Below are positions 15,514 to 64,000 of a DNA stretch of 64,000 nt, piece after piece. The stretch spans positions 34,720,001 to 34,784,000 of the forward strand of contig OX597816.1 in NCBI GenBank assembly GCA_951406725.2. The letters run 5' to 3'. The position numbers and the translations under genes are program-made. The notes below the pieces were generated by a model that was not told the origin of the DNA, did not search any database, and saw only the letters and a program-made list of their open reading frames with translations. Every line of letters begins with the position of its first letter. Position 1 is the first letter of the stretch. The stretch comes from Octopus vulgaris (taxonomy: Eukaryota).

Positions 15514-15592
15514 GATCGCATACCTAGGTTTCAACTATTAACAAAAGAATTACTTACATAATTCAAATGTCCGTAGTTTCGTCAGTACGATC
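15514..15592 (-). ncRNA. Type I hammerhead ribozyme, canonical core
   Basis: Reverse complement reads gatcgta-CTGACGA-aacta..tagtt-GAAA-cctagg-TA-tgcgatc: 7-bp stem I, long stem II, palindromic stem III, GUA site. Confidence 0.85.
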
Positions 15593-48736: not shown

Positions 48737-48802
<66 letters not shown>

Positions 48803-48804
<2 letters not shown>

Positions 48805-49396
48805 AGTCCATATTTTAAATGTCTTACTTTGGAAAATTGCATTCGGTGGGATTAGTAAAATTTTTGGTAGAAATGACTAATTTTGTCCCTCTTAGCGTGT
48901 GGCATGTATGTATAATAATGCCCTCTATATATAAATTAATATGTTCAATAAGAAAGAATTATTTTCGAAATTTTTTCTTTTATGAGGTTTTTCACGCTAT
49001 CTACCCGATAATTTCTTGTTAAGTTTTCCTTATTAAGAAGTTGTCCTTAATCGCTAAATTTTTATTCCGAAAAAACTTTTCCTTTCCCGAAATGCAATTC
49101 GTAAAAGTCTGCCATTTACCGGATGTAATATATGTAAACCAACCCATGTGCTTCGTTGGAGTCGGTCAGTTAGCTGCTCGGCTTGGACGATGGACGAGAT
49201 GGGTTCGTTTATTTATGATACATCCAGACTTGCTGATGAATACAGAGGTATGAAATCACAGGTGATACAAGTCCATATTTTTAAATGTCTTATTTTGGAA
49301 AATTGCATTCGGTGGGATTAGTGAAATTTTTGGTAGAAATGACTAATTTTGTCCCTCTTAGCGTGTGGCATGTATGTATAATAATGCCCTCTATAT

Positions 49397-49403
<7 letters not shown>
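48803..49403 (+). mobile_element. Retrozyme-like / non-autonomous PLE insertion: 465-nt unit plus about 135-nt terminal direct repeat
   Basis: 48803-48936 is almost identical to 49268-49402, an HHR sits at the junction, and both flanks are (TA)n. Confidence 0.8.
49227..49273 (+). ncRNA. Type I hammerhead ribozyme, canonical core
   Basis: gacttg-CTGATGA-atac-agag-gtat-GAAA-tcac-ag-gtga-TA-caagtc; AUA site, cut between 49267 and 49268. Confidence 0.9.
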
Positions 49404-49462
<59 letters not shown>

Positions 49463-49468
49463 TGTATT

Positions 49469-49859
49469 TATGTATCAAATGAAATAAATGAAAAACAGGA
49501 TACAGAGGATGTTGCGGTACGTATGTTTCGAGCTTTATAGTACAACTTATTGTTACATCAATGCATAATCGACATAACAGATAGTTCAACAGCCCTCTGT
49601 GAAGTTTTACAAACATACATTCCCAATCATACTCGGTTTACCGACCATTATAAACAATACCAAATGTTTTTTTCTCCAACCTTTTATAATGTGATACAAG
49701 TCTTTGGTGTAGCAATTGCATGCGGCTGAAGAGGGATTTTGAACTATCTGTTATGTCGATTATGCATTGATGTAAGAATAAGTTGTTCTATAAAGCTCGA
49801 AACATATGTACCGCAACATCCTCTGTATCCTGTTTTTCATTCATTTCATTTGATACATA
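49469..49859. mobile_element. PLE-type end with 130-bp inverted repeat (49469-49598 / 49730-49859)
   Basis: The arms are near-identical reverse complements, and the right arm carries most of an HHR. Confidence 0.85.
49721..49815 (+). ncRNA. Type I hammerhead ribozyme with long stem II
   Basis: tgcgg-CTGAAGA-ggg..ctc-GAAA-catatg-TA-ccgca; GUA site, cut after 49810. Confidence 0.85.
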
Positions 49860-49950
49860 TATCCTCTCACCTATGCCACTAGCTGACATATACAGAGGCT
49901 TACATTTATCAAGTATTCACCCTGAATTTATATATATATATATATATATA

Positions 49951-54491: not shown

Positions 54492-55945
54492 CAGTTGCGG
54501 CCAAAATGTTCAGAACGGTATTGTTTTCGCCAGAACAGTAGATATAATTTTTATCAAAGTTGTTTTATAATTCTATAATTTTCACACACAATAAATACGA
54601 TATTAATTATTATTGTTCGAAATTTTGGTGTAATTTGAGTGGATAATACAAAAGTTATGGATGATTTAGTGATTTACTGCAAAACCCATGGCGGCCAAAA
54701 TGATCAGAATTGTTGCTTTTACTCCGTGTTTTAGTATATTTAACCGGCGATGTTTTGAATTTGTTTACGTGATTGTTCGTTTACTAAACATTAGTAAGAA
54801 TATCTGCAGTGTACTTTGTTAATATAATGCCACTTACTCCGTTACCAATTCGTCAGCAGATTATTAAGCTTCGAAGGAAGGATAATTTAAGTATTGGGTC
54901 TATTGCTAAGACTGTTAACAAGTCAAAAATTGCTGTTCACGGTATACTTAAGGTCTTCGATGATTGTGGTTCATGTGAAGCAAGAAAGTCTACAGGTAGG
55001 CCAAGAAAAATAATCAAGAGAGAAGATCGTGCTATGGTAAAGTTGGTTAAAAAGGACAGATTTAAAACTGCTGCTGCTGTTTCTCGGGAAATGAGCATGG
55101 TACTGAAGAAAACCTTATCTCGAAAAACTGTGTCTCATCGTTTAGTTGAACATAACCTACAAGCAAGATCACCTGCAGTGAAGCCACTGATCAGCTCCCA
55201 AAGTAAAAAGTATCGTCTTACCTTTGCAAACGAACATGTGTTGTGGTCTCAAGAAAAATGGCAAACAGTGCATTTCAGTGATGAATCTAATTTTATGCTA
55301 TTTGGCTCAGATGGGAAAAGGTACGTTCGTGTAAAAGTAGGTGAAAATTGTCGCCTAAATGCCTTAAGACTAGTGTTAAATTCGGTGGAGGAAGTGACAT
55401 GGTTTGGGGAATGATCTCTGGAGATGGTGTGGGCTCTTTGGTGCGATTACATGGAAAGGTAAATGCAGGAGTTTATAAACAACTTGTAAAAGATCATGTC
55501 TTGCCTGTGCTGAGAAGTTCAACTAAGCGACCACCCATATTCATGCAGGACAATGCCCCATGTAACAAGGCTAAGGTGGTCATGAACTTCCTCAAGGCTG
55601 AAAAGGCTATTATTATGGATTGGCCTGCTAAAAGCCCAGATCTCAATCCTATTGAAAATGTGTGGAATATTCTAGGAGAACGTTTGAAAGCCAGAAATCC
55701 TAAAACAACCGAGCTATTATGGAATGCCCTTCAGGAAGAATGGAATAAGATCACCTAGCAAGAAATTGAAAATTTAACTTCCTTATGCAGTCTAAGATGT
55801 CAAAGTGGGATTGAAGCTAAAGGGCTTCACACTAAATATTTAATAATTCCAGTATTCTCTGTCATTTTTTGATTATTTTGTTATTTTTTCAACCATTGTG
55901 ATCATTTTGGCCGCCATGGGTTTTGCAGTAAATCACTAAATCACT
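54492..55945 (+). mobile_element. Tc1 (DD34E, IR/DR type) transposon copy 1, right TIR truncated
   Basis: TA|cagttgcggccaaaatgttcagaa start with inner DR ggcggccaaaatgatcagaa at about 54690. Only the inner part of the right IR is present (55890-55942). Confidence 0.95.
54827..55842 (+). pseudogene. Tc1 transposase pseudogene
   Basis: GRPRK linker, FSDES, MQDNAP and SPDLNPIEN with D-34-E spacing, TKY end. There is a frameshift at about 55345 and a TAG at 55756. Confidence 0.95.
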
Positions 55946-55967
55946 AAATATATATATATTTATATAC

Positions 55968-56038
<71 letters not shown>

Positions 56039-56041
<3 letters not shown>

Positions 56042-57042
56042 TTGTTTATAAACTCCTGCATTTAACTTTCCATGTAATCGCACCAAAGGGCCCACACCAT
56101 CTCCAGATATCATTCCCCAAACCATGACACTTCCTCCACCGAATTTAACACTAGTCTTAAGGCATTTAGGCAACAATTTTTCACCTACTTTTCAACGAAC
56201 GTACCTTTTCCCATCTGACACAAATAGCATAAACTTAGATTCATCACTGAAATGCACCGTTTGCCATTTTTTTTTGAGACCACAACACATGTTCGCTTGC
56301 AAAGGTAAGACGACACTTTTTAGTTTTGGAGCTGATCAGTGGCTTCACTGCAGGTGCTGTTGCTTGTAGGTCATGGTCAACTAAACGACGATACACAGTT
56401 TTTCGAGATAAAGTTTTCTTCAATACAATGCTCATTTCCCGAGAAACAGCAGCAGCAGTTTTAAATCTGTCCTTTTTAACCAACTTTACCATAGCACGAT
56501 CTTCTCTCTTGGTCGTTTTTCTTGGCCTACCTGTAACCTTTCTTGCTTCACACGAACCACAATCATCGTAGACCTTAAGAATACCGTGTACAACACTTTT
56601 TGACTTGTTAACAATCTTTGCAATAGATCCAATACTTAAATTATCCTTCCTTCGAAGCGTAATAAACTGCTGACGAATTGGTAATGGAGTAAGTGGCATT
56701 ATATTATCAAAGTCCACTGCAAATATTCTTACTAATGTTTAGTAAACGAACCGTCACGTAAACAAATTCAAAACATTAGAGCTCGCCGGTTAAATATACT
56801 AAAACACGGAGTAAAAGCAACAATTCTGATCATTTTGGCCGCCATGGGTTTTGCAGTAAATCACTAAATCATCCATAACTTTTGTATTATCCACTCAAAT
56901 TACAATAAAATCTCAGGCAATAACAGATAATATCGTATCTATTGTCTGTGAAAATTATAGATTTATAAAACAACTTTGATAAAAAATTATATCTACTTTT
57001 CTGACGAAAATAATGCCGTTCTGAACATTTTGGCCGCAATTG
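56039..57042 (-). mobile_element. Tc1 copy 2, inverted, 3'-deleted
   Basis: Left TIR at 57042 followed by TA. ORF pieces 56244-56717 and 56039-56176 are highly similar to copy 1 and end at GVYKQL. Confidence 0.95.
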
Positions 57043-61863: not shown

Positions 61864-64000
61864 TTTGATTTTGATTTTGATTTTTCCAGTTTCAGCTTAT
61901 GAGCTGTGGCCATGCTGGGGCACCGCCATTTGGTGTTGCTACTTGGTTTCACTTCATGAAGGCTTTCTAGCAGCTGCTATTTGGTGCATGAGGGAGTTCG
62001 ATGCAGCTGCCCTCATCTGCCCCTCCTGCCGTGAAGTTGGTTCATCTGGGACACCTGACAGGAAGAGATCCAGCTTCATTTTAAAGACATCTGTATCCAC
62101 CCCATGCAGGTCTCTCGGGTTCTTCGGGAGGATATTGAAGAGCTGTGGGCCTCGGAAGCCCAGGCTATCACAGAATCTTGTCCTACATCTTGATGGCAAG
62201 ATTGGAGTCCTAGGCACCACGCAGTGGCGCCCAGTTCTGGCATTTGCGTAACTCTCGATGCCAAAGTTCAGGACACTTCCCTCCAGGATCTTCCAGATGT
62301 ATATTATGGCATATCTTTCCCGCCTACGCTCCAGGGAATATAATTTTAATTTCCTGAGTCTTTCCCAGTAGCTTACATTCTGCATAGAGGCTATCTTCTT
62401 CGTGTAGCTACGTTGGATCGCCTCGAGCTCTGTGATCAACTTGACACTGGATGGTGACCATAACTGAGAGCAGTAGTCAAAGTGGCTTAGGACAAGTGTC
62501 CTCCAGAGGACCATCATGGTTTCTTGTTCTCTTGTTCTAAAGGTTCTGAGGATCCATCCGGCCAGTCGTCTACATTTCATTGCCAATTTAGCAACATGTA
62601 CACGAAAGGTCGCGTCATCACTCATGTAAATACCTAGGTCACGCACTGATTGTGCCTCTGGGATTGCTATTCCTCCGGGTCCAGTGTATTCATTGGGTAT
62701 TGCATTTAGTTTTGCATGCTGATAGTATAGAGCTTGAAACTTTTCAGCATTGAACTGCATGCTATTCTTTTCGGCCCACTTGTATATTTTGTCTAGCTCA
62801 CATTGCAGGTGTTTAGTGTCCTCAGGGTTCTGTATTGCCTGTGAGACTTTTGTATCATCTGCATAATTTGTGATCGTGGCTCTCTGCGTGGCTGAGGGCA
62901 TGTCTGAGAGGGCCATTATGAACAGTAGTGGTCCCAGAACAGTGCCCTGCGGAACACCGCTCACTATTTGCGTGTTAATGGAAGTGGCCCCATTGGCCAC
63001 TACCACCTGACTTCTATCTTTCAGAAAGTCATGAAGCCATTCTCCCAGTTTTCCAACTATGTTGAGATCACGCAGTTTGTGACATATCATTCCATGATCG
63101 ACTTTATCAAAGGCCTTTGCAAAGTCGAGATATATCACTTCCACATTTGAGTGGTTGAGCAGCCGTTTCAGCACCCAGTCATAGTGTTAAACAGCTTCTC
63201 CCTGGTCGGAAACCATGTTGGGTGTCGGGCAGCAAGTCATTTTCTTCAAGGAAGGTGATCAGCTTCCTTCTGACTATTCGTTCCATGACCTTGCTGATGT
63301 GTGAGGTCAGAGAGATAGGTCTATAGTTCTTGGCTTCCGCTGTGCTACCTCCTTTATGAATGGGGCATATTTTACCTTCCTTCAGTTTTCCTGGAAGTTT
63401 GCCAGCTGCAAGGAAGCTCTGAAAGAGGAACTGCAGTGGTCTTGCTAGGACTCTCTTACATGCTTTTAGGAGGATTGCCGGGAATCCATCGGGGCCAGTA
63501 GCTGAGTCTGTTTTCATTTCATCTATAGCCTTGATTACATCGTCTTCCTTTATATCGATGTAATCTATCGTCGCCGCCTCTGATTTTATATCTGCAGTGG
63601 TAAAAAAGTCAGTTGGATTGGTGATTTGGAGATGCCCAAGGGGTGGAGTGAAAACACTCTTGAATTGCTCATTCAGTATTTCACTTACCCTCATTGGTTT
63701 TCCTGTAAGTGTGCCATCCTTTTCGAGGAGTGGCCCTATTCTACAGTGCACCGTAGCCGTTTCTTTGGCATACCTGTAGAAAGCTTTGGGGTTAGATTTT
63801 ATGTTGTCTATAGCCCAGGCTTCTTTGTCTGCTCTTTCCTTTTCATGGGAGAGTTTCAGACATTTTTCGATTTCCAACAGTTTTATTTTTAGGCGGGACT
63901 TTTCACTGCTTTCAATCTGTTTGTTTAGGCGATTTGAAAATTTTGTACGCCGTCTCATTAGAATTTTCCTCTCTCTGGGGATTTTGTTCTTGTGTACAGT
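61864..64000 (-). mobile_element. Young CR1-type LINE, 3' part (runs off the window)
   Basis: RT ORF, short 3' UTR with stem-loop, (AAAATC)n tail, inserted in (TA)n. Confidence 0.95.
61954..64000 (-). pseudogene. LINE ORF2 reverse transcriptase with a single frameshift
   Basis: GPDG, NYRPISLTS, QHGFRPGRSC, YLDFAKAFDKV, GVPQGTVLGPLLF, YADD and SLERRR. A frameshifting deletion lies at about 63185. Confidence 0.95.

Follow-up and report, generated by a model that had tools for sequence, protein, structure and literature searches.

The closest described relatives of the locus reported here are the non-LTR retrozymes of animals and the pseudo-LTRs and tails of endonuclease-bearing Penelope-like elements. 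In the accessible parts of the published accounts, the former are non-coding, low-GC units with one type I hammerhead per lap, which are arranged in head-to-tail laps, coexist with Penelope-like elements, and are proposed to move through circular RNA with the Penelope reverse transcriptase (PMC7229834; 10.64898/2026.07.22.740005). Movement as circular RNA by means of Penelope enzymes has been put forward before (PMC7229834, PMC4209133), with RtcB as the ligase that closes the retrozyme circles (PMC7229834), and support for this proposal has so far consisted of co-occurrence and sequence kinship. In the Penelope-like elements the hammerhead lies upstream of two internal starts of reverse transcription, the targets are AT-rich or (TA)n, and uncut ribozymes are read through (PAc, PMC11167929; 10.1101/2021.04.23.441226; PMC3846280; PMC4209133). 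Their 'tail' is an optional extension on one end only and is accompanied by an inverted, 5'-truncated partner arm (10.1101/2021.04.23.441226, PMC3846280). It has been traced to the two internal start sites downstream of the hammerhead (PMC11167929). For the one Penelope protein purified so far, uncut linear RNA was reported in vitro to be the substrate and the ribozyme was not needed (PMC11167929); furthermore, eight of nine retrozyme dimers that were tested did not cleave (10.64898/2026.07.22.740005).

Retrozymes are further characterised by two or more hammerheads in an active locus, by the lack of a PBS and a PPT, and by expression as monomeric linear and circular RNA. The family of the locus is likewise non-coding and low in GC, with one type I hammerhead per lap, head-to-tail laps and Penelope-like elements in the same genome, and shows in addition the insertion anatomy of the Penelope-like elements. 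It is located in the window, i.e. the whole stretch of 64,000 nucleotides of Octopus vulgaris DNA that was analysed, and is laid out as follows.

48742 to 48802, no strand: left part of the (TA)n target tract, which ends in ATA, the same three bases that precede the cut site
48803 to 49267, + strand: lap 1, one cut-to-cut monomer of 465 nt, non-coding and strongly folded
48893 to 48999, + strand: the most conserved domain, with a 7-bp stem (48893-48899 with 48993-48999) around a hairpin (48901-48922)
48926 to 48937, + strand: site A in lap 1, read through; the first of two fixed 3' ends in the family, with 124 of 241 arms in its bin
49055 to 49061, + strand: site B, read through; the second fixed 3' end (104 of 241 arms end in the B bin)
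49227 to 49273, + strand: type I hammerhead motif, intact across the lap junction, with a predicted cut after 49267
49268 to 49404, + strand: partial lap 2 up to site A, where copying likely began
49403 to 49459, no strand: right part of the (TA)n target tract

We read this copy as a 5'-truncated non-LTR retrozyme that likely arose when a Penelope-type reverse transcriptase copied a likely circular monomer RNA into a TA microsatellite, and give this reading a probability of about 0.62. The sequence bears out the first-pass annotation of the window in so far as it described a 465-nt cut-to-cut unit followed by some 135 nt of a second lap inside (TA)n; the second lap differs from the first at 3 places. 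The length of 465 nt is peculiar to this copy and due to a 7-nt insertion, its close relatives measuring 456-460 nt. The annotation had also cautioned that the TA before the cut blends into the microsatellite. Indeed, the ATA is common to the target and the bases preceding the cut, and the left junction can be placed anywhere in 48800-48803. The unit is far more structured than shuffled versions of itself (z -7.3 as a linear molecule, -5.9 as a circle). Its most conserved domain is likely a recognition site for a Penelope protein, a putative role suggested by the sequence, and site A would represent a start of reverse transcription, with the stretch of ~125 nt from A to B as the optional tail. 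The window locus has one ribozyme only, so that it cannot release the 465-nt monomer by double cleavage, and this copy is probably a dead end.

There are also differences from the known systems. Compared with the animal retrozymes, the units described here measure 456-498 nt and occur as dispersed partial tandems with at most three ribozymes, not as long arrays, whereas the fixed A and B ends, the head-to-head arms and the targeting of TA are absent from the accessible parts of the retrozyme descriptions. Compared with the endonuclease-bearing Penelope-like elements, for which the sources are likewise partial, the unit has no ORF, its tail is ~110-125 nt rather than 30-40 nt long, and its hammerhead has the full core and a helix III of 4-5 bp rather than the minimal form.

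The unit belongs to a dispersed, multi-copy repeat. Exact patterns of core plus stem III matched the genome 496 + 169 = 665 times and the reversed control 0 times, so the sequence is not single-copy; a 16-mer from the 3' strand of the conserved domain had 2165 exact matches. A set of 43 natural cut-to-cut monomers measure 456-498 nt; they form 11 clusters at 93% identity and are 67-95% identical to the window monomer. The GC content of the unit is 0.34. A protein-coding reading was rejected, in agreement with the annotation, which had seen no credible protein: the longest ATG-initiated ORF on either strand of the doubled unit encodes 67 aa and its length is not conserved across families, and an ORF with a reverse transcriptase and a GIY-YIG domain was not found in the unit. 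Part of the stretch occurs in 20 of 24 listed sequencing records, none of them registered as RNA. The assembled contigs of four of these runs, three of which can only be guessed to be RNA, contain pieces that cover most bins of the unit, and one contig of 204 nt spans an intact ribozyme junction; contigs are unable to show ends, strand or circles, and they speak neither for nor against expression. The earlier suggestion of a possibly undescribed retrozyme family stands with regard to its kind (non-coding, hammerhead-bearing and multi-copy). As to novelty, a literature search that had most subscription papers, supplements, Repbase and Dfam outside its scope turned up neither an account of this family nor one of A/B ends in any retrozyme. 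Judged by its sequence the family is a non-LTR retrozyme of known kind, without known host function, and its value lies in the insertion anatomy.

The hammerhead motif contains the conserved core (CUGANGA, GAAA and NUH) and helices I-III. Stem I is formed by 6 bp (49227-49232 with 49268-49273) and followed by the core CUGAUGA (49233-49239), a stem II of 4 bp with a 4-nt loop (49240-49251), GAAA (49252-49255) and stem III (49256-49265); the cleavage triplet is AUA. A stem-checked descriptor returned three motifs in the window, this one among them, whereas 30 block-shuffled windows gave none, and a search of Rfam gave no match at gathering score for the motif. The position of the motif and the predicted cut at 49267/49268 agree with the annotation. 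It called the hammerhead well-formed, which does not amount to activity: the predicted active fold (-5.8 kcal/mol) lies 4.5 kcal/mol above an inactive alternative (-10.3 kcal/mol) in which stem III pairs with the core and the 5' strand of stem I, and the small size of loop III leaves no room for a clean monomeric helix. In the circle, too, the prediction is a misfolded ribozyme; in most circles of animal retrozymes the ribozyme is predicted to stay free (PMC7229834). Relative to its sisters, the window subfamily has moreover been shortened by 6 nt on either side of stem I and by the greater part of stem II. Given these losses and an active fold that is not of minimal energy, its ribozyme may cleave poorly. 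Across the subfamilies the ribozyme shrinks stepwise, with stem II going from ~30 to 12 nt and stem I losing 6 nt per strand (alignment A1, columns 1-13 and 468-511).

The search pattern fixed stem III and left stem I outside. Among 39 distinct combinations, the first four pairs of stem I were kept in 37, 35, 38 and 36 cases, with changes on both sides (pair 1 is GC in 18 and AU in 18; pair 2 is UA in 24 and CG in 10; pair 4 is CG in 18 and UA in 17), and the base of stem II likewise varies in pairs. An alignment of 18 monomers has 73 predicted pairs, 18 of which show a compensatory change, a count that comes from related sequences and carries no tree-based control. The covariation of stem I across sister families suggests that the motif has been under selection and is likely a real ribozyme.

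The fixed ends of the family are its 3' ends. The collected copies provided 251 distinct arms, 241 of which were kept at an identity of at least 80% to one of six natural references. Their 3' ends fall at site A, ~130 nt past the cut (124 arms), at site B, ~255 nt past the cut (104), or elsewhere (13), where the bins for A and B are wide since the alignments run into TA. In nearly all arms (228 of 241) the end is followed by four or more TA units. The arms include 83 head-to-head pairs, which comprise 66 of type A+B, 1 of type A+A, 3 of type B+B and 13 with an unclassified end; in other words, 66 of the 70 classifiable pairs combine one A with one B end and carry the tail on one arm only. Some three pairs appear to be duplicated from a single insertion (L140/L165/L166, L086/L087). 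In the consensus fold, sites A and B each lie just 3' of a hairpin. Two fixed 3' ends that pair as A with B match the tail signature of Penelope, and the copies also show 5' truncation, partial tandems, an inverted partner arm and an AT-rich target. The annotation had attributed the insertion into microsatellites to machinery of the Penelope type, and both the TA runs and the tails and inverted arms speak for it. We are confident that the unit is a non-autonomous element mobilised by Penelope machinery.

The proposed sequence of events is as follows. Loci with two ribozymes would be transcribed and cut twice, and the monomer of 456-498 nt would be ligated into a circle. A Penelope protein would then nick both strands of (TA)n, one nick priming at A and the other at B, as is suggested by the ends of the copies and by the available part of PMC11167929. 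Copying would continue across the ribozyme junction, now sealed, in some cases over more than two laps, and end at scattered places, whereupon two cDNAs would join head-to-head or a single one would join the target; the traces of these last steps are seen as DNA anatomy. For the window copy, the enzyme would have started at A (49404), gone through the junction and, after another full lap, come off at the following cut position, most likely by chance and at the ATA microhomology.

Whether the template was a circle or a linear RNA can be approached through the laps. At least one intact ribozyme junction is crossed by 93 of 128 arms in a first sample that was partly chosen for crossing. Of 184 internal junctions, 183 are free of indels next to the cut. 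At 24 polymorphic sites of the main subfamily, agreement was seen in 260 of 265 comparisons (98%) between laps within an arm and in 438 of 445 between the two arms at a locus, as compared to 61% between loci. In 75 lap overlaps (18,296 nt), 9 of the 446 differing columns recur in two loci and the lap differences are otherwise private; three of the recurrent ones fall within one family cluster each (L091/L093, L244/L249 and L255/L261). Twelve of 15 arms have the same T-run behind the cut in their laps; the window copy is one exception, and another is common to L091 and L093. That the laps arose when a copy was seamlessly inserted into an older one at the TA-rich site A is unlikely, as they would then differ at polymorphic sites. 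Tandem ribozyme pairs number 31 + 13 = 44 genome-wide and there is one locus with three ribozymes. A longer tandem array that could act as master was not found with exact patterns at spacings of 454-515 genome-wide, a search that degenerate or collapsed arrays would escape. The concordant laps, the exact junctions and the lack of such an array imply that each variant passed a single-unit stage and was then exactly re-multiplied, for which a ligated circle would be the simplest route. The template RNA was probably circular, to judge from these sequence patterns. The fuller reading, in which the Penelope reverse transcriptase primes twice, once per target strand, at two fixed sites of a ribozyme-made circular RNA and then copies it as a rolling circle, has in our view slightly better than even odds.

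The strongest competitor is a linear, uncut RNA of several laps, primed in the same Penelope fashion at A and B, with a ribozyme that rarely acts. It has the precedent of the PAc element of the anole, ribozyme mutants of which were reported to insert normally, with uncut RNA as the main substrate (PMC11167929, as far as accessible), and it fits the 4.5 kcal/mol by which the inactive fold is favoured. The additional laps would in that case go back to a parent locus of great length or to template jumping within one molecule. Jumps do occur: the two arms of L169 come from different sequence variants and the laps of L172 from two subfamilies, which implies that two RNA templates contributed to one insertion. 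In addition, the three lap differences that recur within a family are what a linear parent of two laps would give. However, linear lineages can only become shorter by truncation, but there are arms of up to 1070 nt and of three ribozymes, and a longer array was not found with the patterns used. The 98% agreement between laps and the near-absence of indels at the junctions also argue against it, as does the covariation of stem I across families that are 67-90% alike, which indicates that cleavage or ligation has mattered. We consider an uncut linear template unlikely.

A rolling-circle origin of these copies would, if true, provide direct genomic evidence for the proposed life cycle of retrozymes, and would assign to the Penelope hammerhead a function that stayed hidden in the linear system in vitro. 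The family offers hundreds of young insertions with a strict two-site end rule and with laps that derive from a single variant, in a genome that also harbours an autonomous element of active appearance. It makes the choice between a circular and a linear template testable with an RNA of 460 nt.

The first-pass annotation had seen that the window copy starts at the cut site and had taken it for a cDNA of a self-cleaved or circular RNA. Read as a rule, the template would be a self-cleaved RNA whose 5' end is set by the ribozyme. This did not hold for the family. All 74 exact genomic matches of the 20-mer following the cut are preceded by a ribozyme, where the 20-mer represents the variant with five T and so leaves aside the first lap of the window, which has four. 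The sequence TATATA followed by the post-cut 14-mer occurs once in the genome, namely in this window. The 5' stops were sampled from the first 100 of 241 matches of an anchor 95 nt downstream together with the arms that are long enough for a second cut; within 3 nt of a cut we found 2 stops among 82 arms at risk, against 2.3 expected, and these two are the window copy and one arm of L204. The plot of 5' ends relative to the cut largely gave scattered ends, the outcome that the annotation itself had named as speaking against it, and a start at the cut was rejected as a family rule. There are some indications on the other side. In the wider zone from -3 to +17 lie 13 of 93 stops against a background of 8.5% (one-sided p 0.05), a weak excess just 3' of the cut, and 5 head-to-head pairs out of 83 have both of their stops within 25 nt of a cut, where permutation expects 1.3; in ten further pairs, however, the two stops correspond to each other in other parts of the unit. 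Some copies, a minority, may therefore derive from cleaved linear templates, but that self-cleaved RNA should set the starts of copies seems improbable and would concern at most a minority of insertions. The ATA before the cut, being identical to the target, is a natural joining place for a truncated cDNA, and the start of the window copy at the cut is probably a coincidence; we allow about one chance in three that this copy belongs to such a minority.

It is very improbable, and largely refuted, that the copies form no independent unit and are just the 5'-truncated ends, or pseudo-LTR remnants, left by an autonomous Penelope-like element, since, although pseudo-LTRs are described in the sources at hand as carrying type I hammerheads, tails and inverted arms and our sample is a fraction of at least 2165 motif matches, a previous lap of the same unit lies upstream of the ribozyme, none of 281 arms continues into a shared longer body in an all-against-all comparison of flanks, and the 30 GIY-YIG loci sampled from 6136 candidates share no ribozyme with the unit (best patch E 0.075, no significant alignment). 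The annotation had reckoned with the possibility that the unit is merely the UTR of such an element, which none of the 281 arms suggests. Matches of four ORFs in a tblastn search against the retrieved loci were neighbours, and the three that were inspected are not contiguous with the unit.

A candidate helper for a Penelope-mobilised retrozyme is present in the same genome. The young autonomous element of L129 (768-4471) and L137 encodes a reverse transcriptase with a C-terminal GIY-YIG domain in an ORF of 781 aa, which is overlapped in another frame by an upstream ORF of 479 aa without a Pfam hit; the linker has a Zn-finger as in Neptune/Nematis. Its pseudo-LTRs of 504 nt are 100% identical. 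Similar to the unit, the element inserts into (TA)n and obeys a rule of one short and one longer end, the latter by 30 nt, in 7 of 7 pairs, all in (TA)n, as derived from 20 of the 610 exact matches of a 30-mer from its end. In contrast to the unit, its tail is ~30 nt long, its hammerhead-like motif is degenerate, and there is no significant alignment between the two. The long end resembles site B of older families over ~13 AT-rich bases (AUCCUAUU...UAAAU), a likeness in sequence that we regard as a lead only.

Hammerhead or hammerhead-like motifs of other families were encountered near Penelope ORFs in L107 (- strand) and in L133 (4970-5050). Within the window, a third hammerhead motif is located at 15515-15592 on the - strand and combines a 7-bp stem I with a long stem II and a palindromic stem III. 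The fragments at 54788-56738 and 61954-63186 presumably resemble Tc1-type transposases and a LINE reverse transcriptase. Finally, the element next door to the retrozyme copy (49466-49862) lies in the same TA tract and is an inverted repeat with 133-nt arms that are 95% identical. It has a type I hammerhead motif of its own (49721-49815, + strand, cut after 49810) with a long stem II and a palindromic stem III, and is likely a head-to-head insertion of another family of the Penelope type.
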